IMG/VR virus record: IMGVR_UViG_3300027816_000067 | Location: 8,322-72,321 of that record | DNA: 64,000 nt | Reading direction: 5' to 3' (one strand) | From: a virus | Lineage: Duplodnaviria > Heunggongvirae > Uroviricota > Caudoviricetes > Crassvirales | In this document: piece by piece, positions 5,247 to 64,000 of the stretch | Position numbering within the stretch: the first letter of the stretch is position 1 | Layout: each line of letters begins with the position of its first letter | The notes under the pieces: generated by a model | The model's database searches: none | Told to the model about the DNA's origin: nothing | Seen by the model: the letters and a program-made list of their open reading frames with translations, nothing else | Made by a program: the position numbers and the translations under genes

Positions 5247-6704
5247 TTAACTAATTCCGTTAAATAATTTAAAGCAGTTAGTCGGCTTCATAACTTGAAC
5301 ACCTTGTGTTTTCATCCATTCAACGCTAGTAGCATCAATATCAGATGAAGCAAACAAAGTTTCATTATAACCATCTGGCGGTGCTGCCATACCAGGTACA
5401 ACACGATTTACTTCTTCACGTCCAGCTTCAGATACATACTGAATATTACGCTGACCTTCATAAGTTGAATTATCAATGCAATACATATTATATGATTCCA
5501 AAGGAAGACCTGTAATCGGATGCGGGTCAGAAACATCTGCCATTACACCACGATCCATTAAAGGGAGCTTTTTAAATGTTACCTTATGTCCATCAATATG
5601 ACGATATTGATTAAAATAAGCGCCAAACATCATTGAATTACCTTCGCCTGTCACTTGCTTAGTATCTACTAAAGTAAATGCAGCAGAAGCAAGTTTCATA
5701 GCACTATCTGCTTCTTCCATACCACCTGTTCCAGAGTAAATATCTACATCTACTACATCTGAATCAGAAGCATTAAAGAAAATATCACGAATAAGATTTT
5801 GAATCTTACCAGTAGTTAAGAAAGAGTAGCTGTCTTGATTAGGAATTTGCTGAAGCATACCTGCACCTGAAGGAACTACTTCTCCTGAATCTTCGTCAAT
5901 AACGTGAGTAACACCATTAGTGTCTTTGTTATATTCAGAATACCACAGATCAGATTCACATTTTTCTTTAAACTCTAATTGACGTAAGTACATTTCCCAT
6001 TGAGTCCAGAACTTAAATCGCTTACCATCTGCCTTAATCTCTAACACCATTACTTTATTTTTTACATTACCAGCTAACTTGTAAGTATCACGAGTAAGAG
6101 CAATTTGGTTAGTAGTTACAAACGGAGTATGGCTACGAGATTCTACACCACGAGAACGCTCTTTACCAACTTTAGCTACAGTACGTGCCCACACTTTACC
6201 CGGCTGTAAATCAGCGACAGGAATAAAAGCATCAGCAGAAGGGTTCATTAAAACCAATTCATATTCCCATCCACCACTGACTTGACGAGGATCGCTTTGA
6301 ATACGACACTCTAAACGTGAAGGAGAGAATACAGACAATGATTTGTGGAACCAACGATCTGCAAAAATTATTTTAAATTTAGTATGTCCACGACCAGGAC
6401 GATCAGTAGCAGAATAAGTTGCTATAGCTACAGTTGAAGTTTTCTTAGGACGACCAATTACACCGATCTTATAAGATAAGTCAGTTGAGGAAATTTTATT
6501 AACATTACCCATACCTTCAGTTACGAAAGATAAAGGAAAGTTACGACTTCCATAGTTTGCGCTTGTACCATAAGCATGAGTAACAAAAGGAGCCAACCAC
6601 TCACTTTGAGTAAGCAATGCTTTGCTCAAGTGATTTGTTGAACTAAATTCCTTATCGTTAAACTGTGCAGGATAAAGCTCTAAAATAGGATTATAAGCTG
6701 CCAT
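5247..6704 (-). CDS. Putative major capsid protein
   Basis: 485-aa ORF immediately downstream of a scaffold-like gene, with putative portal and large terminase upstream: the canonical portal-scaffold-capsid order. Called from size and position only. Confidence 0.4.
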   Translation of the reverse strand: MAAYNPILELYPAQFNDKEFSSTNHLSKALLTQSEWLAPFVTHAYGTSANYGSRNFPLSFVTEGMGNVNKISSTDLSYKIGVIGRPKKTSTVAIATYSATDRPGRGHTKFKIIFADRWFHKSLSVFSPSRLECRIQSDPRQVSGGWEYELVLMNPSADAFIPVADLQPGKVWARTVAKVGKERSRGVESRSHTPFVTTNQIALTRDTYKLAGNVKNKVMVLEIKADGKRFKFWTQWEMYLRQLEFKEKCESDLWYSEYNKDTNGVTHVIDEDSGEVVPSGAGMLQQIPNQDSYSFLTTGKIQNLIRDIFFNASDSDVVDVDIYSGTGGMEEADSAMKLASAAFTLVDTKQVTGEGNSMMFGAYFNQYRHIDGHKVTFKKLPLMDRGVMADVSDPHPITGLPLESYNMYCIDNSTYEGQRNIQYVSEAGREEVNRVVPGMAAPPDGYNETLFASSDIDATSVEWMKTQGVQVMKPTNCFKLFNGIS

Positions 6705-12945: not shown

Positions 12946-13163
12946 TATTCTAAATTAAGAGCTTCCCTTCGTTCTTTTAATGCATTATTATAACTTAATT
13001 TACCAAAAAGATCCATCTTAATAGATGCAGGAGATTTCTCTTCAATAATAATATTAACAGCTTTATAATAAGCTGTCATTATATCAATTACTGTGTTCTT
13101 GTTTACTCCTGTTTCTTTTTCTGTATTAAGTATTACTTCTGCTATAGTGTTATCTATTATCAT
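12945..13163 (-). CDS. Hypothetical small protein
   Basis: 72-aa ORF coupled by ATGA overlap to the downstream gene. Confidence 0.35.
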   Translation of the reverse strand: MIIDNTIAEVILNTEKETGVNKNTVIDIMTAYYKAVNIIIEEKSPASIKMDLFGKLSYNNALKERREALNLE

Positions 13164-18242: not shown

Positions 18243-19224
18243 GCACCTCTCTTCTCTGTTTCTCATCATGACATAGCATACTATTCATATATAGCATATG
18301 ACACAGCTAACACAAAACCAGATCAAAGAGCAAGTACAACTCAACATTAATAAGATAGAAGCAATGCTACGCGCACCATATTATAATGTAAATGAGCTGT
18401 TGAAACTGCGGAATATGACGAAGATACTTCAAAAACAACTACTGTAATGAAGCATCTTCGCATACTCTTATCCATTAGTGTTATCAGAATTGCTAATTTT
18501 GATATACTAATCATGGATTTACTCATGTTGGTACCTGATACCACAGTTACTTTCACATTTCTTTTCTAACTTACCATTGTTTCACTTTCTAATAATATAA
18601 CCTTATGACTAAATCTTCCGAATATCATTTACCTTCTGATGCATACTGGGTATGCTCTGATAAGTACAACGGATTATCTTCCAAAAGTAAGTATGTAGGC
18701 GCAACGAACCGCGTTTTATCTCGCAACACACAAGTTAGTGTTTTACGAGATAAGTCATCATGTAGTAAAGAATACATACAACGTACTGGTCGTCACAATC
18801 GCGGAAAATGAAAAAACCAGCACGTATTACTAAACAACTAGCTGTATGATACTAGCTATTGCACTTATTGCTACTGTATCAGTACTTATTAATTATCTTT
18901 TTCTTGTAAATACACCTACTGGTAAAGATACAGAAGCGGGTAGTGCTATGTTTCATACATTATTTTTGATTGTTGTATCTACAATAGCTTGGTGGTATAT
19001 TAGTATTGCTATGGGTATTGTATGGTTGTGTTGTTCTTTTCTTATTCTTTTTGCTTATATTATTTACTATACAAGGAAATAATATTAGTTAGTGTTTTTC
19101 ATTAACTAAGACAGATTCTGAATCCTGTCTTGATTGCTGCTCATAGTGAACCATCTATGGCTTTTCTGAAGAGTTACATTGGAGGAATTATCAAAGTGGT
19201 GACAGCTTGGAAAGACAAGCAAAT

Positions 19225-19373
19225 AGTCAGGTGGCGGAATTGGTACGCCATTGTAATATAAATGAGAACAGATTAGGGCCTACTCAAACCAGACCACGCT
19301 ACAGAAATGTAGGTTAGAAATAACAGTCGTGAGACCCTTTATTACAAAACAGGTTCGAATCCTGTCCTGACTA
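19225..19373 (+). ncRNA. tRNA-like element A: Leu-type acceptor/D/T arms with an ~85-nt insertion in the anticodon-arm region
   Basis: 5' AGTCAGG-TG-GCGGAATTGGTACGCC (acceptor + D-arm). 3' ACAGG-TTCGAAT-CCTGT-CCTGACT-A (T-arm plus a perfectly complementary acceptor strand and discriminator A). The intervening segment is closed by a 7-bp helix TTGTAAT/ATTACAA and contains two GAAA-tetraloop hairpins. Total length 149 nt. Confidence 0.55.
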
Positions 19374-19434
19374 CAATGAAGACTGTTACTAATTCATAGG
19401 ACAAGACAAGTAGTAAGCGTAGAATTAGATTTTT

Positions 19435-19583
19435 AGTCAGGTGGCGGAATTGGTAGACGCACTTATAGAAGAATCAGGGATTGACTCCTGATACCTTAAC
19501 CATAAGGTAAAGCATTGTTGAATGATGCAACTATAAGATTTAAGTATATACATTAAATACAGGTTCAAATCCTGTTCTGACTA
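19435..19583 (+). ncRNA. tRNA-like element B: type-II architecture with a ~65-nt insertion in the anticodon-arm region
   Basis: 5' AGTCAGG-TG-GCGGAATTGGTAGACGC, identical to a bacterial tRNA-Leu D-arm. A 7-bp helix CTTATAG/CTATAAG encloses three hairpins. A variable-arm hairpin ATTTAA..TTAAAT follows. T-arm ACAGG-TTCAAAT-CCTGT, then acceptor TCTGACT-A. Also 149 nt. Confidence 0.55.
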
Positions 19584-19602
19584 CAAATAAAAAACAAATA
19601 AG

Positions 19603-20733
19603 ATGAAAAACATACACGTATTACTAACGGACAAACCAAGTACGTTGTGGGTTAATAATTTAAGAAGAAGAATAGAATTAGATAAGGATGTTTTAATTGG
19701 TAGCAATACTGCCCAACACATCTACATCACTTCTGATGATAAAATCACATCAAGCCAAGATTGGTTTATAGACATTAAGGATAATCGCAATCATTTACAC
19801 CAAGTAGGCTATGATTTAGAAAGTGTTGAATGGAATGACCAATACAATCCATTGTATTTTAAAAAAATCATCCTAACAACAGACCAAGGATTAATCAAAT
19901 ATGGTGTACAAGCTATTGATGATGAGTTTTTAGAATGGTTTGTTAAGAATCCAAGTTGTGAGGAGGTTGAGGTTTATAGAGAAGGTTATAAAAAGAATGG
20001 GATGATTGATGAAGCAACTTCTTATCAGTACAAAATAATCATTCCAAAAGAAGAACCTAAAGATATAAATGCTCACACAGGATTTGATGAAGAAGGTCAT
20101 TCTTTAAATTATCAAGGAAATATTTTACCTTTAAATAATATTGATCCTGTAAGATTTGAAAGACAACAAAAATCATTTAATTTGTGGAGATCAAACAAAG
20201 CACGAGGAGGAATAGAAGCTGTAACAGGATTTGGTAAAACTTTTATAGCTATAAAAGAGTCTAAACAAGAAACTACGATTCCAAAAGAAGAACCTAAAAA
20301 AGAATATATTAAATGTGGTGACTGTAATAAATATTATTTATGTACTACTTGTGGTGCTCAATGTGGTAGTGAAGGACATTTTATTGAGATTACTAAACAA
20401 GAGTCACTTGAAGAAGCTGCTAAAAGAATAATTTCTGATATGGGATGGGTTTGGGGAAATATAGAATCAGCAGCAAGAAGGGTAGCAGAATATTGTGCTA
20501 AATGGCAACAAGAACATTATGGTTTAATGGAAATAGAATTAAGACACACTAAAACACTTTTGGCAAGTTGTGAAAAAGCATTGGAAGAAAGAGATAAGCA
20601 ACAAGAAAGAATGTATAGTGAGAAAGAAGTTCTCAATCTTTTATATGAAAGAGAATCTGAATTAAACACACATAATTCTATTTTTAATTATCAAGATGCT
20701 AAAGAATGGTTTGAACAATTTAAAAAGAAATAA
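19603..20733 (+). CDS. Mosaic hypothetical protein (helicase motif-I fragment + PKEEPK repeats + zinc ribbon)
   Basis: 376 aa. The segment NLWRSNKARGGIEAVTGFGKTFIAI is near-identical to the Walker-A region of the SF2 helicase at 37835 (NWFKHNGIGVLEAVTGFGKTMVAI) but has no DEAH motif or motif VI. It also has an internal repeat IIIPKEEPKD / TTIPKEEPKKE and CGDCNKYYLCTTCGAQCG. Confidence 0.5.
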   Translation: MKNIHVLLTDKPSTLWVNNLRRRIELDKDVLIGSNTAQHIYITSDDKITSSQDWFIDIKDNRNHLHQVGYDLESVEWNDQYNPLYFKKIILTTDQGLIKYGVQAIDDEFLEWFVKNPSCEEVEVYREGYKKNGMIDEATSYQYKIIIPKEEPKDINAHTGFDEEGHSLNYQGNILPLNNIDPVRFERQQKSFNLWRSNKARGGIEAVTGFGKTFIAIKESKQETTIPKEEPKKEYIKCGDCNKYYLCTTCGAQCGSEGHFIEITKQESLEEAAKRIISDMGWVWGNIESAARRVAEYCAKWQQEHYGLMEIELRHTKTLLASCEKALEERDKQQERMYSEKEVLNLLYERESELNTHNSIFNYQDAKEWFEQFKKK

Positions 20734-20762
20734 CACAGTCAGGTGGCTGAATTGGAATAAGG

Positions 20763-21269
20763 TTGCCTCCCGCTAATGACGGAACAGAGTATGTAGAAGC
20801 ACATTACCAATTCTTTTTACTAAACATTAAATTAAAACAAATGAACAGATTTCAAGATTTTATGACTAATCCAGCAAATATGGATATAGTCAAAGGTGTA
20901 ATTGCTATTTTTCATCCTGATATTAATCTTGATAAGCGTAAAATAACAATTTACATCAAGCATGATTGGGTGATTATACACACAGAAGGGATAGATATTG
21001 GTGTTGAAGTACTTCCTAATGAGTTTTGTGCTTATAATGGCTTTATGGAACCAGGTTATACAGCACAATCATTTCAAAAGTCTTTGGATAATGGTACTTG
21101 TATTTATAAAGCTTGGAGATTTGTTGATGATTCTAAGTATGCTGAAACAGAAACAGAAGAGTATATAAAACCTGAAAAGCTTGTGCATGAATACCTGAAA
21201 GATAAAAATGTTCCAATACCTACTGCACAGGAAATGTATAAGTACTATTATAGAAGTAATAGTGATTAA
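20763..21269 (+). CDS. Hypothetical protein (annotated start is a TTG overlapping a tRNA-like fragment; the real start is likely the internal ATG near 20841)
   Basis: 168-aa ORF. Confidence 0.45.
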   Translation: MPPANDGTEYVEAHYQFFLLNIKLKQMNRFQDFMTNPANMDIVKGVIAIFHPDINLDKRKITIYIKHDWVIIHTEGIDIGVEVLPNEFCAYNGFMEPGYTAQSFQKSLDNGTCIYKAWRFVDDSKYAETETEEYIKPEKLVHEYLKDKNVPIPTAQEMYKYYYRSNSD

Positions 21270-21394
21270 ACTTACAATAACTTGTAAAATCACTTATAGC
21301 TGTTTGATGCGTTGCTTAATTGTGCATAACGAACAAGAATATAACCAGTGCCGATTATTAAGAGATGAACTATATTTGAAATACAAACTGAAAA

Positions 21395-21608
21395 TATTAA
21401 AAAAGATGGCGGGAAAACCAGTGGCCGAGCAGTGTAGTTCTGGTACAGACACCAATCAAATGAGATTGGCAGAACAATGGCCGACAAGTGGAAGTGTTGG
21501 TGATGAGAGGCAACACAGGGCAAGTAGTAATACGTTTGTAGCCTACCATGTAACACGCTGCCCCCTCCCGTGTGGTGCTGGCTGTAATCGGGGTTAGCCA
21601 TCTTTTTT
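21395..21608 (+). ncRNA. Candidate structured ncRNA (GC-rich) ending in an intrinsic terminator
   Basis: A GC-rich island inside AT-rich DNA. Internal hairpins (CCAATC aaatga GATTGG) and direct repeat TGGCCGA. Ends with TGGCT..AGCCA hairpin + T6 at 21579-21608. The two overlapping ORFs here (21208..21597 + and 21290..21601 -) look like non-coding sequence. Confidence 0.35.
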
Positions 21609-23454
21609 AATATTTTTTATTCACTAAACTATCCTATGAAACGCTCATACAAACATTCTTGCCCAGAAGGATGCTCTAAGGTTGTAAAGAGTGCGTAGCT
21701 CATAACGGTGAAAGACCTAAAATATGAAATACATAACTAAGCTTAAACTTGCAGCAGTACACCAATTATGTGATCATGAAGATAAGTCTACTGAATATAT
21801 GTATCAACTAATGCAAGATACTTGTAAAGTTGATATAGATACAGTAAATAATTACATGATTAATGAAAATCATAGTAAGTTATTTAAAGAACTGAATGAA
21901 TTAATTGATGTATTTGAAAAAATATAAAAACGGACTTTAACAGATAGTGGCCGGAAATAGCACGAACTTGATTAGAATGATGAAATAAGGTTTTAAAATT
22001 TAAAAACGACTAACAGATAAACCGTCCTACGAAGAGTAGAAATAAATTGGTTTGATAAAATGAGTTCTGTTTGCGTTGCGATAATGGGTGAAGATGACTT
22101 CATAACAAAAGTTAGGATTTCAAAAGACACTATTAAATACTTCTGGTTTAGAGAGGAAGAAGCATTTGAAGCAGACCACATTTGGTGTCAAGGATAAATT
22201 ATATTGTATGAAAAGTATGTCGTGTTATCATAGAGCTTTTTGTAGTAAGTGTTATTTTGAGAACAAGGTTGGTAGAGAAAGAGTAGCTGGTGATATAGCG
22301 AGACGTTAAACGACTCTAACACACTACCAACTTTAAAAACTGATTGAGATAATTATGAAATAAAACTATGAAAAAGACATAATGATCTACAGGTAGATTT
22401 AGAACTAAAGATAGAAGTCATTCTTCTAATGGAGAGCTAGGTAAATTAGAGTATCTAATCCTACGACAAATGTCTGCTGAATTGTAGTAACCAACTTATA
22501 AACTGTTCTTTATCTTCCTTAAATCTGGTAAAATAAAAATAATCTAGATAATAGGCTAAACATTGATCCTTTGTGAATAGGTTTGTGTAGCAATGCAACG
22601 TCAATAAGTCAAAAAGCTTAATTCACATAAAGATACTAATCCTGAATTAATAGGATGTTAATAGAGCATCGTAAAACCGATATCTATTAATGCTGTAAAG
22701 CTAGATGTGTTGTTCCCTTGAGAAAGGATAGTAAAGGAAACTTCCCAAAAGGAAGAACATACCCAACACAAATGAGTTCTCAGCAAGTAGTTAAATAGCA
22801 GATTGTCTCGTCCATACAATCAACTACATGACCCTACTTAATATATTAGCTACGTTAAATTGTGCCTAGTAATTAAAGGGTGCTAACATACTTAAAATAT
22901 GTTGACGATAAAGATAGATACCAATAACAACAATGGAAGTATGTATCAAACTTTTAGTAATGGTATTACTTGGAGATTGATATAAAGATTTAACTCTTCT
23001 GCTTGAAGACAAACAACTATATATCTCCAAAACAAAAACTATCGGAGATTTGGCGTAAGTACCGAGTTATAGTTCTGTTCCAGCAGTTAATGTTTGTTGT
23101 AGAGATAGTAAGTTCTGAACGTTCTACTTGAATTGACAAGTAATGTAGGTATTAAATTACCATGCTATGTAAGAATAAACTATTCCAACTAGAAAATTGG
23201 ACAGAAGAGTTATTAACATTAAAACTACTAACAAGAATAGAATAACAAGATATATGTCGCATACGAATGTATATTGTATATTGTTGCTCTATAAGGTCTG
23301 TATTAGTTAGTAGTTTTATTTTAAACATTAAAGATTTAAGAGTAGTAGAGTGAATGTATATAGAGGAAATTGTAGTGTTTAGCTACGTACTAAAACTCAA
23401 AGCTAGTAGTCAACTTATTAGTACTATTCTTATTAATTTTAAACATTAAAGATT

Positions 23455-30034: not shown

Positions 30035-30370
30035 GGGGCAGATTGGTTTTGACATGAATAGTTATATTATATAATCAAGCGTAGGGAAGTATGTTGTACC
30101 TACTGAAAATGCGCATACAACAACGATTGCTAAAGAAGCAAAAGTAGTGCCTATGTTTCCTCAAGGAGTAAATGTAGGACAAAGTGAAGGTGTTCAGCTA
30201 CGTGTAGCTGCTTAAAGAACACTTAGTTTAAGTTGAACAGGTTTAATTCTATATAATGTACCTTAAACAAATATAGATGGTGGAAGGTGTTCCTATCGGG
30301 AAGCCCCAAAGCTTGTATAAATTGTATAATGTAGTATTTATGGACAGGGGTTCGATTCCCCTCTGCTCCA
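30035..30370 (+). ncRNA. ssrA: tmRNA (ssrA), standard one-piece form
   Basis: 5' GGGGCAGATTGGTTTTGACATG resembles the tmRNA 5' consensus GGGGCUGAUUCUGGAUUCGACGGG. 3' GGACAGGGGTTCGATTCCCCTCTGCTCCA resembles GGACGGGGGUUCAAAUCCCCCCGGCUCCA. The acceptor stem GGGGCAG/CTGCTCC carries the G3-U70 wobble needed for alanylation, with discriminator A and no encoded CCA. An internal reading frame ends ...GVQLRVAA-TAA at 30213-30215, a typical tag ending. Confidence 0.75.
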
Positions 30371-30389
30371 CTAATAAGTTGAACACTGG

Positions 30390-30474
30390 GCCATTGTGTT
30401 GGAACTGGTAGACAAGACAGACTTAAAATCTGTTGTTCGTTAAGAACGTGGAGGTTCGATTCCTCTCAATGGTA
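30390..30474 (+). tRNA. tRNA-Leu (anticodon UAA), type II
   Basis: Acceptor GCCATTG/CAATGGT with G1-U72 wobble. Anticodon stem ACAGA/TCTGT with loop CTTAAAA. Long variable-arm hairpin GTTCGTTAAGAAC. T-arm GGAGG-TTCGATT-CCTCT. Discriminator A. Confidence 0.7.
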
Positions 30475-30572
30475 CGACTAGTTAGAGATTTTGCTATTTC
30501 TCTTTAATCAGATAGCGGGTGTACGGAACTACCAAGTGATCCTTTTTATTTAATTTTCTAAAGTACATTTTT

Positions 30573-55942: not shown

Positions 55943-58900
55943 TTATTCTATTATAGTGTTAGTTAACGACACAAGTACTGGAGGATTATTACTAAAAAAC
56001 TTTAATTGCTCTTCAGGAGTTCTAGCATTGTAGTAAGTACCAGCAAAAGGTACTAATTCAATACCTATAATCTCATAATTCTTTAATCCCTTGTACTTTC
56101 CTTTCTCCATTTCATCGTTCCAATTCCAAACTTCTATTAATCTTTGTAACTTTTCAATTTGACGAATTGCAGGAAGAGGACTACGTGCAAGACGTATAGC
56201 TTCTTGAGGGTTACTATAAAACTGCAATTCAGAATGTATTCTCAATGCTTCGTAAGCAATAAATGCTGCTACCCAATTATCTTCATCATCTGCATATGCA
56301 GTAGCTAAAGAAGCTATTGCTGCTGTAGCAAGCATAAAACTAAATTCTGTGGCAACACGGATTAAATTAGCTTTTTCTACTGCTTTTATAGTTTCGTCAG
56401 TAGTTCCTAAAGTATCTTTAAGTTCTGTCAATTCTAGAATAGAACGTTTTAACACTCTCCACAGTGTTGTGTAATATCCTTCTGTATAAATTTCCCCTTC
56501 CTCATTATAAGTAAGTTTTTCAAATCGTCTGTTCCACCCTGGTTTCATCCATTTTCTAAATAATAAACCCATTCGTCCTATAGCATATCTATGAACTGCT
56601 GCTTTATCTATATCATTATAGATACCATGTAATCTCTTATTTAAGAAGTTTTGTCTGTTAATAAATCTATTAACATCTTTTTGAGTCAATGGCTTACCGT
56701 TTTCTTCTTTCTTAAATAAATCAGTTGCTTTTTCTCCTCCTACCTTTGTCAATCCTTCTTTTAATTTAAGTCTATAAGATGGATTTTCCTCTGTTCCCAC
56801 ATTTACAACATCATAAGCTTCCCAAAGAGTCATTATATTTCCTTCAGTATCTTTTACTTTTATTCTTTGAGCAAGTGCTAAAGAAGATTTAAGCTGCATA
56901 TAATGTTCACCACTTCTATTCATAAAGTATAAACTAGATTGAGTAAACATTCTAGAGAACCAATTTGTTCTACCAGTATTTGCGTCTCTTAATTCTCTAT
57001 TGTAGTCTTGCAGTGTATTATGATATTCACTCCATAAGCTTAATTTATTAGATACATTTCTAGCACCAATATCTTTTAAAGTACTAGGTAATTCACTTAA
57101 ATAAATTTTATCTGCTTCTAATAAATCTTTATTAGTAATAAGTTCTCCAGCAAATGCTTCCATTCTAGTCATTATATTACCATAAGCTAAGTTAGCAACA
57201 CCTGCATAAACGTTCAAAGCAAGAGAAGATAAAGATGTATATTTATTTAAAGTATCTGCAAGCTTTGCAAATTTTTCATCTTTCTTTTCATTACCATAAA
57301 TTACCATTTCCATATAATCTTGATAACGTGCAAATGCTTTACTATTTTCACCTTTAATAGTAATTTGTTTACCTTTTTCTCCTTCTTTTTTAAAGTAAGT
57401 AATAGGATCAAAAGTACCTGTTAATATTTCTCTTTCAATAAGAATATCTTTAGATAGTTCCACCATATCTACTACTTTACTAATAGCCTGATAGTTATAA
57501 GCTGAGTTAACTAAAGCAATTAATGAAGAACTTGCATCAGTAGATAATTGTGTAGGATCAATAGGTCTAGTATAGAACATAGGTACAAAATTTACAGGAT
57601 TACCTTTTTCATCTGTAAGTTTTGTTAATCCAAACTCTATATCATCACCAGCTTGCTTTTTAAAAGCTTCCAGTATAGTTTCCTTACCTTCGTTTAAATA
57701 ATCTTTAGGAGATTTAAGAGTTCTTTCTCCATTTTTATCTACAAAAGCTAATCTTTCAAAGAAATCTTTTCTTACTTGTGGCATATAACCAAATAGTTTA
57801 TATGCTTCAGGTAATTGAGATTCTACTTCTTTTAATAAATTAGTATATTTATCATAATAAGCTTTAAGTGCTGGATTATTTTCAATCTCTGCAAATTGAC
57901 GGCTTAAATACTTATCAGAAGGAACAGCAAGTTCTTTAATATATCTAAGTTCACGCTCTCCACTTTCAGGATTATATATTTCTGTACTATTTTTAGCAAC
58001 CCAGGCATTATACTCCCTTATACCAATACGTTGACCATATCGTGTAATAAATTCCTTTTTCTTATTTTCTAAAACTTCTTTATAATTAGGATTTACTTGA
58101 GTATTAATACTAAACCACTCTGCTACTTTTCTATTCCACTCTCTTTGTTTAAATGCATCTTCTGGTTTTGGTCCAATAGACTTAAAAAAGGCAGATTTTG
58201 CTTTATTATATTCAGCAACATTCCACTTACTAATCATTCTACCTGAAAGATTGCCTGCAAAATCTCTTTCATACATCCAATTAGTAGATTTAATACCAGC
58301 TTTTTCTAATTCCTGCTGCATATCTACTATAGATTTTGCTTTTTCTAGTAATGGTACTCTATAATTATTTAATGAGTCTTTAACAATAATATCAATAATT
58401 TTTAAAATAGGATCACCGGATTCAGCTAAAGCATCTAAACCTCGTTGAGTAAAAGAAATATCTTTTTCTAATACTTCTAGTGCTTTTTCCATATCCTGTT
58501 TTAATTTAGGATTAGATGAAAAAGACTTAAATATATCAGCAAGAAGTGTTTTACCTAATTTTAAATAATTATTTTTTAAAGCTTGAGTAGTCACATAGGT
58601 ATCACTAGCTTTAACATTAATACTATTATTCGTAAAAGGTTTATCTGTTGCTAATTTTTCTAATGTACTTTCAAAACCTAAAACATAATTTTGTGCAGAA
58701 CGAAGAGTATTAATTAATTCTCTTTTTTCTTCTAAAGTTTCAGGTATTCCATTTTTAATAATTTCACCGATTTGATTATATCGTTTTGCAACTGTATCCA
58801 ATTCAATTCGTGCATTAGCTAAATATCTTAATAAACCTAACTCATATTTCTCTTTATTAAGATCTTTTATTAATTTGTCAAAAATGTCTTTTTCTCTTTG

Positions 58901-61900
58901 TAAGTAGGTACTACCAGCTTTTCTTTCATATAAAGATAATTTCTTAAAAATAGAATCAATACCAAGTTTAAGAGTTTCTATATTATCGTTAATGTCTTTT
59001 TCAGAACTTAACTTATAAAATACCTCTCCAATTTTAATATTTCTGTTAGTAAATATATTGGTATTACCAGCTAATATTTGTTCTGCAATATATTCTGTAA
59101 TACTATTTACTTCTTTATTAAAATCAGCTATATCTACTTTTCTAAAAATACCAATAAATCTGTTCCATAAAGCTTCTAAGAATTGAAGTACTACGTTATT
59201 AGTGTTTTTTCTAGTTTCATTATACCGCTTAACAATAGCTTTTCCTATAAGTTTACCAATCGTTTCTCTTTTTAAAGTAGTTATATCTCCAGCATAAATC
59301 TCTCCATATTCATTTACTACTTCTTTATACTCGGCAGTATTTTGAACTAAACCCATTAAACTATCGTGAAAAGATGTTCCTCTAGTAAATGCTTCTGCAA
59401 AGTGTCCAATTTCTTCAGGAAGAGTATTTACATTTTCTTTATTTTGTGAAATAAGAATAAGTTTATTGTAAATATCCGCAGCACCAGCAGCATCTATACC
59501 TAATCTAGATTTAAGATTTTCGTGTGCTTCTACTTTAATTCCTAAAGAACTAGCAAATGTTTTTAATATATTATTAAGATTTTCATCTGCTTTCTTAACG
59601 TTTTGTTGAGAATTTTCTAAAGAATATAAAGTTGTATAATCATAATCTACATCGAAGTAGCTGTCAGCATTAATAGATTTGATTTTGTTAGAAGGTATAT
59701 TTGTTTCAGCAGGATTTAATTTATCAAACTCTACAATATGGTTTTCATATCCTAGATTTTCCTGAATATTAAATACAGTTTCATTATTTTTAGTAGTTCC
59801 ACTATATTTAAAAGTATAGGTGATACCGTTACTATTTTCGTATAAAAACCGATTACGTATTACTTTCCCTTCTTCATCATAAATACCTAAACTTCTACTT
59901 TTAGCTTCGTCAAATTTCATACTAGTAACAAAACCACCTTTATTCTTTTTTGTTACAGTTACATCTTCTTTTTTCAAAGTTTGAAGTAAAGTATTATAAG
60001 TACTTTTATGTCTATATATTTGATCTAAATAATTTGCAATTAAATGCGTACTATCTTTTTCATTTTGTAATCTATATACAAAATCTCGATAAGAAACATC
60101 CTCTTTATTTCTTAGGTTTTCTAAGAAATTAATAGGAGTTAGATGAGAAAATCCAGTATATTTAAATCCTAAATATGTAGTAAAAAAAGCATAGTTTAAT
60201 AAATCATTGGCCATTCCTTTAATCTCTACATTATCAGAACCTAACATAGATTCCCAAGCATCTTGTAATCGCTCTATCTGCTCATTACTAATAGTAGCAG
60301 CAGAAGTAAACTCAATTCTTTGTAGGTTATTAAACGAACTCTTACTTTTAACAGCAAGATATTTAATCAATTCTAATTCAGGATATTTTTTCTTTAATGC
60401 TACAAATTTAGCAGGGTATTCATTTATATAATATAATTTTTTAGTCTCATCAAAGAAACTAAAATCACTTATATAAAAATGAATAAAGTTATTAAATACA
60501 TAATTTATTTCATCTGCTGTTAATTCTTGACCTTTATTATTTTCTAAAACATTAACTAATGTCTTAAATAGTTTTCCATTATAAGGAAAATATCTAGATA
60601 GTATCTCCTCTTGTGGTTTTTTAACACCGTATTCAATAGATATATCAATTAAAGGAATATTTAAAACTGAATCAATTCCAGTTAAAGATTTTAGTTTACT
60701 TACATTACCAACACTTTCTAAAAAATGAGTATTTTCTGCAAGAGTTTTACCTACACCATTAGTATCTGCTTTTGAAGCTTTAATTAAAGCAGATAATTGT
60801 TTGCCTGTTTTTCTTAATTCTAAGAAAGTTTCTAAAACTTTAGCTTGTAATAGTGCTGCTTTACGTTTTGCAGTAGGATCAGGAATATTAGCAAGACTCA
60901 CAAAAGATTTTCCTAATTCTTTTGTACTTAAATCATACATTTTAGATTTAGGATAATCTCCAATAATTTTTGTAAGTTGTTGCCGTAAATCTGTTACAAT
61001 CTTATCAACTTTTGCTTCTGACTTATTTTGATTATTATATTGATTAACTAGATTTTTTAAGATAGATTGATTAATAAAATACATCGCTGTTTTTAAACTA
61101 AATCCAGCACGTATAATTAAAGCAACACTATCAAAAGTAAATAAGTTAAGATTTAAACCAGTTGCTACGGGGTCTTTTGCTGTATCTACAAACGCACCTA
61201 AAAATTCTGCTAAGTTTTGACCTACTGATCTTCCTTGCTCTGTTGTTTCCGTAGTATGTAAAGAAGATCTTCTTTCTCCGTCAAAACTAATTGATTGTGT
61301 TAAACCAAGTTTAGAATATTGAGTAAGAGCATGACTACTATTGTGATTAGCAGCAAGACCAATTAAATTCCCACCATTACTATTGATATCAAAATATTTA
61401 CTTTCTGTTCTTGGTAATATAATATTATCTTGACGTATCAACGCTCCATAAGAATCTCTTATTTCATTATGTAGAGTTTTTAAAGTATCAAATCCACCTG
61501 GAGTTAATACTTTACTCGACATATCAGGATGAGAATATATACTGTTTATAATATCTAATAATGCATTATCTCTCTGAACTTTAGATAAAGTTTCAGGTTT
61601 ATCTAAATTATATTTTACTTTTCTTAACTTCCAATTTACTTCTTCTAGAGTAGGAAGAATAGTGTAAATTTTATCAATATCGAAGTCTTCACCAGCAATA
61701 GTAGTAATATCATAAGGTAGTAAAGCAACACTACCCATAATATCGGGAGTAAATCCTACAATTTTCATTTTTTTAATAGAGTACCATCCTTCTGTGGGAA
61801 TACGATAGCCTATTAATTCTAATACTTCTGGAGATTCTTTTTGAAGCTGTTCAATATCTACTTCACCTTTCTTATCTTTTAATTCAAAAAACTTACGAGT

Positions 61901-64000
61901 ATAAGCAGGAAGCATTACTTCCATATACTCTACTCCACCTTCTTTATTTTTTACTATTTTTAATTTCTTATCTAATCCCCAACTAGAAACCAAAGTAAGA
62001 GAAGCACCAGCAATTTTTTGTTTTGTAACATTATTACGAATAACAGCATTTAAAATATTTTGTGTTCTTCTACCATGAATAGGATCAAATAGAGGAATAT
62101 TAAATATTTTATTACCTTCTTGATCAATTACAATTTTTAAAGCTTCGGCATAAGACTCACTTAGACCACGATCTCTAACTTGTTCTAATAGCAATTTTTG
62201 AACACTTTCAATGGTCTGAAATTCACCAGATAGAGTATTATAAGATTCTATAATATTATCTGTTAATAGTTTTTGATAGGTTTTGAATAATTCTTGTTTA
62301 TTCATACCCATAATTTCAATATTATCAGGAATTTCAGATAAAGCTAATTTCTTAAACTGAGTTCCAAGTAATACTTCAATATCTAAATGTTTAGCTGGTA
62401 CTCTTTGCTGAATACCATAATCCTTATTATTTAAGATGTGAATAACTGGTTTTGCACCTTTTAAAAATTCTTCTACTGTTACTGCACCGTATTCTCCTAC
62501 TTTAACAGCAGAGTCTGCAAATTGAATTTCATCAATATTATTAGCATCCATGTAATCCAGTAATTTTTTTAATACTGGATTTTCTTTAGCCATAGCTGGC
62601 GTAAGTAATGCTTGGCTGTTTTTATGCTGTACTGGTATAATTATATCAGTACCATCTATATTTTCGTGTGTAAATGCAAAAGGCTTTATAGAAGATGGTA
62701 GAAAATTAGAAAATCCTGTACTCCATGCTCCTTTCTGTGCTTTTTGATAAGTAGATTCGTGTTGATCTGTCCATTTACCAATACCAATCATTATGTTTTT
62801 ATATCTATTTAAACGAATAAATGATTGAGCATCTGTAACATTTACATTTTTAAATAGTTCTGTATCTTCTTTAACATCTTTTAAATAAATACTTTTATAA
62901 TATTGTCCAACACCAGTACCATCTTTCCAAACAGCAGTAGTATCTAGTCTATCTGTTAATTTATAAATTTGACCATTACGTTTTTGAAATGTAATAGAAT
63001 CTTTATAGAAAGATAGATCAATAGATGTTAATTGAATAATATTAACATTAGCGTGAACTTTATTATAAAAATAATCTTTTAAATTATCTACTAAATTACC
63101 ATTACTAGTTACAAAAAACGAAGTTTGATCTCCTTTTATTACTTCTAATGTAGTTAAACGATCTAGTTCTATTTTAAATTCTTCATTTAACCAATTAGTA
63201 ATAGCTTCTTTAGCAGCTTTTATATTATTAATATCTATATTAGGATCGTTAAAGATAGTTAAAAACTGATATTCTTTACCTCTAGTTTCCCAATGTTTAA
63301 TACCTAATTCTTTATAAGTATCTACTTTTTCAATTCTTTCTTTTTCTGCTAAAGCTACTTGATATAAGTTATCTACTATTTCTTGCTTAGTATATTTTTT
63401 AAATCTAATAGTAGGTGAAGTAGGACTATCAGAAAGAATTGGTACTCTGTAATATGCAAATTTTCCAGAATTAAACAAAGCAATATCTGATATTGCTAAA
63501 TCTTTTTCTGTCATTTTACTAAATGCCGTACCTTTATTAGTGTCAAATAAATTAATTCCATTAAGAATAGCTAGACTAAAATTCTCTCTTAATTCATAAT
63601 TTTCTTCTTTATCTAAATCATTTAAAAAAGCATTAGATTTAAACCACCAGTTTTCTAGTAATTGTTTTCTATTATTATTTTTCTTTAAATCAGTAATTAA
63701 ATTAGATAAGAAAGTAGGAAGTGCGTAACTATATACTTGTTCACCTTCAATGTTAATTACAGAATCTAAATGTAATTGAAGACTATTTGAAGCAACAGTT
63801 GTAGATACGCTTATAAGAGAAGATGATTCGGCTGTGTCTCCTTCATAAGGATTAATACTTGCTGTAATAGAAGTTAAAATAGTAGTTAAAGAACGAGGTC
63901 CGCCTATAAAATTATATAAATTTTCAACAGCTGTAAGTCCTTCAGTACTATAATAAGTGGGTCTTTCTATAAACTCATTTATAAATACTTTAGGAGAGAT
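55943..64000 (-). CDS. Giant protein (at least 2685 aa; N-terminus beyond the window), candidate virion-associated/ejected protein with an RNA-polymerase-like DFDID motif
   Basis: The ORF track starts it at 63514 (2523 aa), but the same frame stays open with no stop through 63515-64000. That is a further 162 codons, which I translated by eye (...NWWFKSNAFLNDLDKEENYELRENFSLAILNGINLFDTNKGTAFSK-MTEKDL), so the gene continues past the window. Residues ~606-614 (track numbering) read IAGEDFDIDKIY, a hydrophobic strand followed by an Asp triad. Confidence 0.85.
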   Translation of the reverse strand: MSPKVFINEFIERPTYYSTEGLTAVENLYNFIGGPRSLTTILTSITASINPYEGDTAESSSLISVSTTVASNSLQLHLDSVINIEGEQVYSYALPTFLSNLITDLKKNNNRKQLLENWWFKSNAFLNDLDKEENYELRENFSLAILNGINLFDTNKGTAFSKMTEKDLAISDIALFNSGKFAYYRVPILSDSPTSPTIRFKKYTKQEIVDNLYQVALAEKERIEKVDTYKELGIKHWETRGKEYQFLTIFNDPNIDINNIKAAKEAITNWLNEEFKIELDRLTTLEVIKGDQTSFFVTSNGNLVDNLKDYFYNKVHANVNIIQLTSIDLSFYKDSITFQKRNGQIYKLTDRLDTTAVWKDGTGVGQYYKSIYLKDVKEDTELFKNVNVTDAQSFIRLNRYKNIMIGIGKWTDQHESTYQKAQKGAWSTGFSNFLPSSIKPFAFTHENIDGTDIIIPVQHKNSQALLTPAMAKENPVLKKLLDYMDANNIDEIQFADSAVKVGEYGAVTVEEFLKGAKPVIHILNNKDYGIQQRVPAKHLDIEVLLGTQFKKLALSEIPDNIEIMGMNKQELFKTYQKLLTDNIIESYNTLSGEFQTIESVQKLLLEQVRDRGLSESYAEALKIVIDQEGNKIFNIPLFDPIHGRRTQNILNAVIRNNVTKQKIAGASLTLVSSWGLDKKLKIVKNKEGGVEYMEVMLPAYTRKFFELKDKKGEVDIEQLQKESPEVLELIGYRIPTEGWYSIKKMKIVGFTPDIMGSVALLPYDITTIAGEDFDIDKIYTILPTLEEVNWKLRKVKYNLDKPETLSKVQRDNALLDIINSIYSHPDMSSKVLTPGGFDTLKTLHNEIRDSYGALIRQDNIILPRTESKYFDINSNGGNLIGLAANHNSSHALTQYSKLGLTQSISFDGERRSSLHTTETTEQGRSVGQNLAEFLGAFVDTAKDPVATGLNLNLFTFDSVALIIRAGFSLKTAMYFINQSILKNLVNQYNNQNKSEAKVDKIVTDLRQQLTKIIGDYPKSKMYDLSTKELGKSFVSLANIPDPTAKRKAALLQAKVLETFLELRKTGKQLSALIKASKADTNGVGKTLAENTHFLESVGNVSKLKSLTGIDSVLNIPLIDISIEYGVKKPQEEILSRYFPYNGKLFKTLVNVLENNKGQELTADEINYVFNNFIHFYISDFSFFDETKKLYYINEYPAKFVALKKKYPELELIKYLAVKSKSSFNNLQRIEFTSAATISNEQIERLQDAWESMLGSDNVEIKGMANDLLNYAFFTTYLGFKYTGFSHLTPINFLENLRNKEDVSYRDFVYRLQNEKDSTHLIANYLDQIYRHKSTYNTLLQTLKKEDVTVTKKNKGGFVTSMKFDEAKSRSLGIYDEEGKVIRNRFLYENSNGITYTFKYSGTTKNNETVFNIQENLGYENHIVEFDKLNPAETNIPSNKIKSINADSYFDVDYDYTTLYSLENSQQNVKKADENLNNILKTFASSLGIKVEAHENLKSRLGIDAAGAADIYNKLILISQNKENVNTLPEEIGHFAEAFTRGTSFHDSLMGLVQNTAEYKEVVNEYGEIYAGDITTLKRETIGKLIGKAIVKRYNETRKNTNNVVLQFLEALWNRFIGIFRKVDIADFNKEVNSITEYIAEQILAGNTNIFTNRNIKIGEVFYKLSSEKDINDNIETLKLGIDSIFKKLSLYERKAGSTYLQREKDIFDKLIKDLNKEKYELGLLRYLANARIELDTVAKRYNQIGEIIKNGIPETLEEKRELINTLRSAQNYVLGFESTLEKLATDKPFTNNSINVKASDTYVTTQALKNNYLKLGKTLLADIFKSFSSNPKLKQDMEKALEVLEKDISFTQRGLDALAESGDPILKIIDIIVKDSLNNYRVPLLEKAKSIVDMQQELEKAGIKSTNWMYERDFAGNLSGRMISKWNVAEYNKAKSAFFKSIGPKPEDAFKQREWNRKVAEWFSINTQVNPNYKEVLENKKKEFITRYGQRIGIREYNAWVAKNSTEIYNPESGERELRYIKELAVPSDKYLSRQFAEIENNPALKAYYDKYTNLLKEVESQLPEAYKLFGYMPQVRKDFFERLAFVDKNGERTLKSPKDYLNEGKETILEAFKKQAGDDIEFGLTKLTDEKGNPVNFVPMFYTRPIDPTQLSTDASSSLIALVNSAYNYQAISKVVDMVELSKDILIEREILTGTFDPITYFKKEGEKGKQITIKGENSKAFARYQDYMEMVIYGNEKKDEKFAKLADTLNKYTSLSSLALNVYAGVANLAYGNIMTRMEAFAGELITNKDLLEADKIYLSELPSTLKDIGARNVSNKLSLWSEYHNTLQDYNRELRDANTGRTNWFSRMFTQSSLYFMNRSGEHYMQLKSSLALAQRIKVKDTEGNIMTLWEAYDVVNVGTEENPSYRLKLKEGLTKVGGEKATDLFKKEENGKPLTQKDVNRFINRQNFLNKRLHGIYNDIDKAAVHRYAIGRMGLLFRKWMKPGWNRRFEKLTYNEEGEIYTEGYYTTLWRVLKRSILELTELKDTLGTTDETIKAVEKANLIRVATEFSFMLATAAIASLATAYADDEDNWVAAFIAYEALRIHSELQFYSNPQEAIRLARSPLPAIRQIEKLQRLIEVWNWNDEMEKGKYKGLKNYEIIGIELVPFAGTYYNARTPEEQLKFFSNNPPVLVSLTNTIIE

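Follow-up and report, generated by a model that had tools for sequence, protein, structure and literature searches.

What kind of RNA gene has the acceptor, D and T arms of a tRNA and no anticodon arm? This question is raised by two tandem sequences of 149 nucleotides (nt) each, here called elements A and B, in a 64,000-nt stretch of DNA from a crAss-like phage (the window; positions 8,322 to 72,321 of IMG/VR virus record IMGVR_UViG_3300027816_000067). Both combine a tRNA-like frame, which we refer to as the chassis, with a structured domain in place of the anticodon arm, which we refer to as the cargo. We found that A and B belong to a family of phage RNA genes, and we consider it on balance probable, judging from sequence comparison, that they are non-decoding tRNA-like RNAs in which a chassis derived from tRNA-Leu would give tRNA-type processing, stability and probably leucylation to cargo RNAs. 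Our confidence that A and B are real non-decoding tRNA-like RNA genes is higher than our confidence in this whole package.

Both elements start with AGTCAGG-TG-GCGGAATTGGTA and end with ACAGG-TTC(G/A)AAT-CCTGT followed by (C/T)CTGACT-A. The ends of the RNA form a canonical tRNA acceptor stem of 7 base pairs (bp; AGUCAGG/(C/U)CUGACU) with A73 as the discriminator base, and the T arm ACAGG-UUC(G/A)AAU-CCUGU is canonical as well. U8, A14, A15 and the GG of the tRNA core are present in both elements, and position 48, directly before the T stem, is U in B and A in A. The anticodon arm of a canonical tRNA, with its 5-bp stem, 7-nt loop, U33 and a purine at position 37, is absent; a 7-bp helix closes a multi-hairpin domain of 62 nt in B and 83 nt in A instead, and neither element can decode. 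An earlier note on this DNA, made from the sequence alone, had described two 149-nt elements with canonical acceptor, tRNA-Leu-type D and T arms, 7-bp closing helices, two GAAA hairpins in A and three hairpins in B. Our reading of the sequence agrees with it on all of these points, and the minimum free energy (MFE) folds reproduced the described structures (z = -2.5 for A and -3.4 for B). The note was also right that a structured domain replaces the anticodon arm, but it had counted the 21-nt variable arm of B (19538-19558) as part of the insert. Its argument that the equal length of A and B pointed to a fixed architecture had to be given up, as the variable region is 1 nt in A versus a long arm in B, family members span 67 to 168 nt and the orthologue of A has 144 nt, so that the equality is a coincidence.

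Standard annotation did not recognize either element. A scan of the window with Rfam at gathering thresholds and with ARAGORN called only a tmRNA (30035-30371) and a tRNA-Leu(UAA) (30390-30475), and left A and B uncalled. When Rfam matches up to E <= 10 were considered, A and B were hit by fragments of the tRNA model (RF00005) only, and no intron, ribozyme or riboswitch model matched them. A covariance model (R1) was built from an alignment (A2) of 45 family members. It assigned 74.9 bits (E = 8e-16) to B, which was outside the training set, and 70.6 bits to A, versus 37.7 bits for the true tRNA-Leu of the window. The scores of A and B are far above chance.

The exact 21-mer AGTCAGGTGGCGGAATTGGTA from the 5' end of the elements was found in at least 120 viral contigs of IMG/VR (loci numbered L001 onwards). 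The 3' end ...CAGGTTCGAATCCTGTCCTGACTA was conserved in these loci too, though it had been outside the query, and the sequence between both ends varied in content and length. Pairing of the 5' and 3' motifs among the matches listed gave approximately 211 complete copies, of which 198 were unique (67-168 nt, median 104 nt), with up to 9 copies per locus. With the covariance model, 174 matches at E <= 1e-5 were obtained in the first 100 loci (873 kb). The element-bearing loci are phage tRNA islands, which together hold 180 bona fide tRNAs, and they lie in widely differing phage backgrounds; a given protein family was encoded close to the elements (within 3 kb) in at most 8 of about 120 loci. Among 185,579 species-representative genomes, the 3' 24-mer of the family was present in 18, all of them contigs of metagenome-assembled genomes (MAGs), mostly of Bacteroidota and including Chitinophagia, Sediminibacterium, Flavobacterium and Saprospirales, and in none of the isolate genomes of this set. 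This distribution indicates that the chassis is specific to phages rather than copied from a host tRNA. There was no family member among 50,697 GenBank phage records, and no cultured phage among them carries the family. It is absent from Rfam 15 as well, and searches with sequence strings and keywords found no description of it in the searchable literature. We conclude that the family is large, widespread, apparently undescribed and found in uncultured Bacteroidota phages. The remark in the earlier note that there is no named class of such a shape is right for Rfam 15 and the searchable literature, but species 1 RNA (rnaC) of phage T4 is a clear older analogue.

The chassis was conserved throughout the family. 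In a logo of 171 members the acceptor strand read A1 (165 members), G2 (171), U3 (170), C4 (168), A5 (171), G6 (168) and G7 (171), and the core positions were U8 (164), A14 (152), A15 (150), G18 (157), G19 (127) and A21 (131); U preceded the T stem at position 48 in 145 members, and 155 had A73. The T loop UUCGAAU (TTCGAAT) was nearly invariant, and the acceptor pairs A1-U72 through G7-C66 were at least 95% constant, with rare variants that were mostly compensatory (AGCAAGG/CCTTGCT, AGTCAAG/CTTGACT). In helix positions that varied, both partners had usually changed: T-stem pair 49:65 was A-U in 135, G-C in 21 and G-U in 23 members, and pair 51:63 was A-U in 168, G-C in 7, C-G in 4 and U-A in 4. 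Altogether about 52 chassis nucleotides were nearly invariant over about 200 copies in unrelated phages, and only the middle differed.

In every one of 5,426 complete E. coli genomes, annotated tRNA-Leu genes matched chassis nucleotides 5-29 at 24 of 25 positions, and we therefore identify the chassis as the top half and core of a tRNA-Leu. Bacterial leucyl-tRNA synthetase (LeuRS) needs A73 and a core of U8-A14, A15-U48, G18-U55 and G19-C56, and the anticodon arm is dispensable for leucine aminoacylation but needed for editing (Yao et al., PMC2377443). The conserved chassis set (A73, U8-A14, A15-U48, G18/G19 and the T loop) is the LeuRS identity set listed in that work, and at the sequence level the features of a LeuRS substrate, that is A73, the tRNA-Leu D arm and the core, are all present. 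We also observed related forms of the chassis. A compact sub-family of 77-80 nt (AGTCAGG-AG(C/T)GTAATGAGG-N-ATGG-NN-CC-RAGTCCT...GGTTGC...) shares the acceptor and T arm of the other members, lacks the tRNA-Leu D arm and is well conserved in sequence between loci (L032, L066, L082, e.g. 6412-6489, L100, L103, L038 and L025). Two further loci (L026, ~13031-13101, and L109, ~4266) encode a 71-nt bona fide-looking tRNA-Lys(UUU) that combines the family acceptor and T arm (AGTCAGG...CCTGACT) with another D arm. The top half of the chassis hence also serves at least one decoding tRNA.

The cargo middle was 20-110 nt long and highly diverse, falling into 155 clusters by BLAST and into 145 types by 12-mer dereplication. 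No shared cargo motif was detected, as no 7-mer was common to more than 7 of the 145 types, and copies inside one genome bore different cargos, not repeats of one. Nevertheless, individual cargos are conserved between phages as discrete units. Similarity between the window and the loci with A-type elements was confined to 19221-19376 (93.6% to L006, L139, L140 and L141), with unrelated flanks; in these four IMG/VR contigs the orthologue of A measures 144 nt. For the B type, similarity was confined to 19434-19584 (94% to L142, 78% to L145 and 75% to L146/L147), again with unrelated flanks. The cargo of B was identical in L142 at 76 of 76 nt, and the variable arm next to it differed by pair-preserving changes (ATTTAAGT...ACATTAAAT in the window, ATTTGGGTG...CACTCAAAT in L142). 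In the diverged B cargo of L145 and L146 the helices P1, P2, P3 and P4 were all kept, P3 having changed from ACCTTA/TAAGGT to ATCCTA/TAGGAT. Across an alignment of four B-type sequences, 120 of 120 pair cells were paired (100%), compared with 28-42% in slid controls, and both partners had changed in five pairs, which lie in P3, the variable arm and the T stem. A second cargo cluster also covaried (CATACAAT/GTTGTATG versus CATATAAT/GTTATATG). The compensatory changes in acceptor, T stem, variable arm and cargo helices indicate selection on RNA pairing. The search for covariation in relatives that the earlier note had proposed was thus positive for B, whose helices are conserved and covary in L142, L145 and L146/L147.

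Some cargos contained a second hairpin resembling a T arm (GTTGGTTCGATCCCAAC, GTCGGTTCGAGTCCGAT and TGGTTCGAGACTCA are examples). T-loop modules elsewhere dock onto tRNA elbows, and the hairpin is a possible hint to the role of some cargos. In some members the D loop, too, was interrupted between GGAAT and GGTAGACGC by 25-65 nt of inserted sequence, which shows that at least two positions of the chassis accept cargo. Two candidate identities of the cargo were rejected. Sub-threshold PreQ1 matches fell on the T arm and the A-rich trailer and not on the cargo, which speaks against a preQ1 aptamer, and antisense or CRISPR-like guides against the sampled phages were discarded as complementarity did not go beyond chance in the window or in 1.27 Mb of DNA from related loci.

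The flanks of the elements resembled those of tRNAs. Upstream, U(-1) was found in 144, A(-2) in 125 and A(-4) in 130 of 183 elements; downstream of A73, position 74 was C in 176 of 183, followed by A/U and A (CAAA, CUAA) and an A-rich trailer. The pattern recurred in the true tRNAs of the same loci: 132 of 180 were preceded by U(-1), and AAA or AAU came after N73-C. Bacterial RNase P prefers U(-1) together with an A-rich proximal leader. Since the flanks match both the tRNAs and this context, we expect the elements to be processed at both ends and to receive CCA in the same way as tRNAs.

Directly upstream of A we found a leader hairpin whose last base (19224) is the U(-1) of the element. Its motif, (T)TGACA-N5-GAAAGA-N5'-AA.., occurred 22 times in the 1.27 Mb of related loci, once of these in the window, and at least 13 of the 21 motifs outside the window sit 3-8 nt upstream of a family element. 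The loop was invariant and the stem covaried (GCTTG/CAAGC, CCTCG/CGAGG, GCCTG/CAGGC, GGTCA/TGACC, GCACG/CGTGC and TGATG/CATCA). With the loop centre about 12 nt before A1, the geometry presumably resembles that of the hairpin promoters used by the virion RNA polymerase of phage N4; crAss-like phages carry a virion RNA polymerase. A sigma-70 promoter was rejected for this hairpin, as its -10 box would overlap the first bases of the RNA and promoter-like sites in the region were no commoner than in shuffled sequences. The coordinates of all features are given in Table 1.

Table 1. Features of elements A and B, of their surroundings in the window and of related loci. Positions refer to the window unless a locus is named.
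Feature	Position	Strand	Remarks
Leader hairpin TGACA-GCTTG-GAAAGA-CAAGC-AAAT	19200-19224	+	directly upstream of A; 5-bp stem, GAAAGA loop
Element A, tRNA-like RNA gene	19225-19373	+	149 nt; 70.6 bits, E = 9e-15
A, acceptor 5' strand	19225-19231	+	
A, D arm	19233-19249	+	
A, cargo-closing helix TTGTAAT/ATTACAA	19251-19257 / 19341-19347	+	7 bp
A, cargo interior	19258-19340	+	83 nt
A, GAAA-tetraloop hairpin CTACA-GAAA-TGTAG	19299-19312	+	
A, GAAA-tetraloop hairpin GTTA-GAAA-TAAC	19313-19324	+	
A, T arm	19349-19365	+	
A, acceptor 3' strand	19366-19372	+	
A, discriminator A73	19373	+	
Element B, tRNA-like RNA gene	19435-19583	+	149 nt; 74.9 bits, E = 8e-16
B, acceptor 5' strand	19435-19441	+	
B, tRNA-Leu D arm	19444-19460	+	
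B, closing helix P1 CTTATAG/CTATAAG	19462-19468 / 19531-19537	+	7 bp
B, three-hairpin cargo	19469-19530	+	62 nt
B, class-II-type variable arm	19538-19558	+	21 nt
B, T arm	19559-19575	+	
B, acceptor 3' strand	19576-19582	+	
B, discriminator A73	19583	+	
Decayed or truncated third copy	20737-20868	+	23.5 bits, E = 0.002
T-arm-like cargo hairpins in related loci	L019 3721-3808; L095 ~2042; L145 12468-12600		in L145, P2 of the B-type cargo
D-loop insertions in related loci	L142 12210-12283; L066 17-161; L118 near 975; L059 11954-12099		~65 nt in L142
Leader hairpin in loci outside the window	L001, L003, L051, L062, L066, L097, L100, L110, L113, L115, L118, L124, L125		two copies in L118

From these observations we propose that the element genes would be transcribed with, or like, the phage tRNAs. 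The L-shaped top half would then be a substrate for RNase P, 3' trimming and CCA addition, giving the RNAs precise ends and a tRNA-like stability. Because the LeuRS identity set is retained and LeuRS needs no anticodon arm, the RNAs are probably leucylated and could as a consequence be bound by EF-Tu. tRNA-Leu would also be a logical parent of such RNAs, since it belongs to class II, where a long extra arm is tolerated already, and is charged by a synthetase that disregards the anticodon. In each gene a different cargo replaces the anticodon arm, and often the variable arm too, and it would do a gene-specific job, most likely by binding a particular macromolecule or ligand of host or phage; it is the conservation at sequence level together with the structure that makes a specific partner the most likely explanation. 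Among the options offered in the earlier note, tRNA-scaffolded non-coding RNAs are thus favoured by the invariant chassis, the sequence-specific, covarying cargo and the tRNA signals in the flanks.

Several findings weigh against this proposal. Taken as a class, the inserts had only a little more structure than random phage segments (mean z of -0.64 versus -0.10, p = 8e-5), and some cargos may be largely unstructured or unconstrained. The internal fold of A rests on thermodynamic prediction because only one variant orthologue was found. No cargo matched an Rfam aptamer or ribozyme at permissive thresholds in the element region, in 6.5 kb around it, in 18 loci with 60 elements or in a preQ1-like cluster. 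The cargos of A and B showed no above-chance complementarity in the window, and outside other elements no cargo matches were detected in the 1.27 Mb of related phage DNA. The sequence of the acceptor stem is furthermore kept more strictly than a chassis for processing and stability requires, which hints at a sequence-specific partner or at homogenisation at the DNA level. Leucylation would in any case not be universal, because the 77-80-nt sub-family is without the tRNA-Leu D arm.

The window encodes a crAss-like capsid protein (Crass_capsid, 5247-6704 on the minus strand, E = 2e-62), a family A DNA polymerase and a 2523-amino acid (aa) open reading frame (ORF) at 55943-63514 on the minus strand, and no Pfam or PHROG function was found for the neighbours of the elements in the window. 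Downstream of B lies the third copy, which has a recognizable 5' half (AGTCAGGTGGCTGAATTGGAA, 2 mismatches), a possible 3' end TGACTA at 20863-20868 and no T arm. The stop of a 376-aa ORF directly precedes it, and the ORF at 20841-21269 starts within it. Orphan 5' halves abutting or fused to ORF starts were also seen in L031, L070, L111 and L119, and they look like recombination scars. The following approximately 2.2 kb (21270-23450) are almost free of ORFs and include a GC-rich island (21395-21605) bounded by a 9-bp inverted repeat (AAGATGGC...GCCATCTT). This stretch had no Rfam match at E <= 1 and an MFE z of only -0.7 to -0.9.

Among other explanations, the chassis alone might act as a decoy or sponge. 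The top half would titrate a host factor that recognises the acceptor, the elbow or the CCA end, with LeuRS, EF-Tu and a tRNA-targeting defence nuclease or transferase as candidates, and the middle would be filler without decoding capacity, its role being to keep the RNA away from the ribosome. A chassis that is far more conserved than its cargo, including helix sequence beyond structural need, would be expected in this case, as would many copies per genome and inserts that are weakly structured on average and share no motif. Phage tRNA arrays have also generally been linked to the countering of tRNA-directed host defences. Against this explanation speaks the conservation of cargo sequence within discrete units in unrelated genomes, with 76/76 nt of the B cargo identical in L142 despite changes in the variable arm beside it and with element A as a whole 93.6% identical to its orthologue. 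The covariation of cargo helices and the presence of different cargos in the copies of one genome also count against it. We therefore regard the tRNA-mimic decoys of the earlier note, which leave the conservation of the cargo unexplained, as unlikely, if still worth considering.

Alternatively, the elements might be punctuation in polycistronic transcripts, that is cis-acting RNase P and RNase Z cut sites that give downstream genes short, A-rich 5' leaders, the excised RNA being a by-product. There is a precedent in the t-elements of plant mitochondria, tRNA-like structures next to ORFs that are cut by RNase P and RNase Z and define mRNA ends (PMC1920247). We counted ATG-started ORFs of at least 60 aa downstream of elements with at least 400 nt of flank, and 36 of 163 elements (22%) had an ORF start 8-24 nt after A73, versus 12 of 146 true tRNAs; B itself ends 19 nt upstream of the ATG at 19603, and tRNA-type processing signals are present in the flanks. 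Most elements, however, do not adjoin an ORF but lie in tRNA arrays, many of them in tandem (51 of 163 with another element within 300 nt), and t-elements are degenerate and without conserved cargo. The ORFs directly downstream fell into 46 unrelated clusters of mostly small hypothetical proteins, which suggests accessory-gene cassettes attached to the elements, and a cut signal has no need of a conserved, covarying cargo. As the sole function we find punctuation decidedly unlikely, and it may be an additional role of the elements.

A third explanation places selection at the DNA level, with the conserved halves as homing targets or recombination sites that shuffle cassettes and the tRNA shape as merely historical. 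In at least six loci (L142, 12195-12560, L010, L015, L029, L034 and L114), the 3' acceptor strand of an element is the exact insertion point of an HNH homing-endonuclease cassette. There, the variant end CCTCGGCT is followed by a hairpin whose loop is UAGAAAUA, the motif TAnnTTTG, which is promoter-like (similar to the -7 element of Bacteroidota), repeated GACTACAAA and the HNH ORF. This suggests that the conserved chassis is a homing target. The orphan 5' halves that abut ORFs and the movement of elements as units between unrelated genomes point in the same direction, and SegB in the tRNA cluster of T4 is a precedent. Homing would account for spread and homogenisation, but not for structure or covariation; the compensatory changes reveal selection on RNA pairing, and the nucleotides of tertiary contacts (U8, A14, A15, G18G19 and U48) are conserved. 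We consider a purely DNA-level role very improbable.

Intron-containing tRNAs, in which inserts of 60-85 nt would be spliced out to give functional tRNAs, had also been suggested in the earlier note. In alignments to the Rfam tRNA model many members indeed show a large insertion where the anticodon arm belongs, the residues beside the closing helix of A (AU...AU) could in principle supply U33 and A37, and one cluster (L003/L050) retains a Leu-like CAA/UAA loop. But excision from B would leave A32, G33 and C,U at 37/38, which is no canonical loop, the variable region of A would amount to 1 nt, and in members of 67-72 nt, which have no anticodon arm, there is nothing to splice. ARAGORN in intron mode returned arbitrary anticodons and intron positions that were inconsistent across the family. 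The earlier note had itself pointed out that the inserts are far below group I size and have no bulge-helix-bulge motif, and this was borne out: 62 and 83 nt are a third of the minimal group I size (~200 nt), no Intron_gpI match was obtained at E <= 10, and the closing helices are uninterrupted over 7 bp. We know of no splicing endonuclease in bacteria, including the Bacteroidota host lineage. Splicing is therefore hardly a credible explanation. Equally far-fetched are decaying tRNA-Leu pseudogenes, for although the family descends from tRNA-Leu, standard tRNA finders miss A and B and a truly decayed copy exists at 20737, decay would strike all arms alike, as the lost T arm of that copy illustrates, and would not spare about 52 nearly invariant chassis nucleotides.

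When compared with known systems, a non-decoding chassis with exchangeable cargo has its closest natural analogue in species 1 RNA of phage T4, although the resemblance is one of kind, with no curated family definition behind it. Species 1 RNA (rnaC, 139 nt) and species 2 RNA (rnaD) are small stable RNAs encoded, like the family members, inside a phage tRNA cluster, and they adjoin the homing-endonuclease gene segB. Both T4 RNAs are processed from tRNA precursor transcripts. At its end rnaC has a canonical T arm (CCGGGUUCGAAUCCCGG) and then a 3' strand capable of pairing with the 5' end; where the anticodon arm would be, it carries a large structured domain. It has, however, no sequence similarity to the family, and T4 has single copies without a conserved D arm, whereas the family combines a complete tRNA-Leu core with about 150 cargos on one chassis, of which as many as 9 copies occur per locus among the matches listed.

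Other tRNA-like RNAs have a single aspect in common with the family and differ in defining features. YrlA (RF02553), which is encoded by some phages, likewise fuses a tRNA-like module with acceptor-, D- and T-like arms to a functional domain, but its tRNA-like module is internal and the RNA ends in a Ro-binding stem, whereas the ends of A and B form the acceptor stem. YrlA did not match A or B at E <= 10, and its best match in the related loci (23.8 bits, gathering threshold 69) fell on a true tRNA region. To our knowledge there is no link between the element-bearing phages and Ro/Rsr. In the TMERs of murine gammaherpesvirus 68, a non-decoding tRNA-like module is the expression and processing handle for functional hairpins. 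These depend on eukaryotic Pol III and tRNase Z, the hairpins follow the tRNA-like part and do not replace an anticodon arm, and there is no homology to the family. The 3' tRNA-like structures of viruses share one aspect with the family, but their defining features do not fit. In tmRNA, too, a large insert stands where the anticodon arm would be, joined to an acceptor/T-arm domain; tmRNA has the G3:U70 alanine identity pair, no D stem, a tag frame and pseudoknots, whereas family members have a U3-A70 pair and a complete D arm and lack a tag frame. A tmRNA identity of A and B was rejected on the basis of the U3-A70 pair and of the Rfam and ARAGORN scans, which call only the genuine tmRNA of the window. 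The latter scored 102.6 bits with a predicted tag VGQSEGVQLRVAA and is directly followed by the tRNA-Leu(UAA); a tmRNA also adjoins tRNA-like elements in L032 (553-939).

The same architecture has been built in the laboratory. In the engineered tRNA scaffold of Ponchon and Dardel, a structured RNA replaces the anticodon stem-loop and the chimera is processed and stabilised as a tRNA (a use of this design is described in PMC3753655). The architecture is identical to that of the family, with the difference that the scaffold is a construct on tRNA-Lys3 or tRNA-Met, whereas the family is natural, phage-encoded, tRNA-Leu-based and diversified. Going one step further, the family might be a modular library of RNA effectors, in which well over 100 aptamer-like cargos on one leucylatable chassis would be exchanged as cassettes between unrelated phages with the help of homing endonucleases. 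Acting as sponges or decoys, for example, the cargos would then target host defence proteins, signalling nucleotides or translation factors. We offer this extension tentatively and regard it as rather doubtful.

The tRNA islands of phages are usually read only as supplements for codon usage or against nucleases. Our results show that, among the tRNA-like genes of environmental Bacteroidota phages, a considerable fraction is unable to decode and yet under strong selection. For annotation this means that genes of the family are missed, as were A and B, or are mis-called by ARAGORN and Rfam as tRNAs with introns or odd anticodons. If the proposal of a tRNA-Leu-derived chassis with exchangeable cargo is correct, the family would represent a large set of natural structured RNAs, with about 150 types in a small sample, whose targets may include components of host defence or translation. 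It would also be a natural precedent for tRNA-scaffolded RNA expression and would offer a new angle on the 50-year-old puzzle of the T4 species 1 and 2 RNAs. Should the more tentative idea of an effector library hold as well, these phages would possess a natural counterpart of tRNA-scaffold and aptamer technology, and the family would constitute an RNA layer of the arms race between phage and host.

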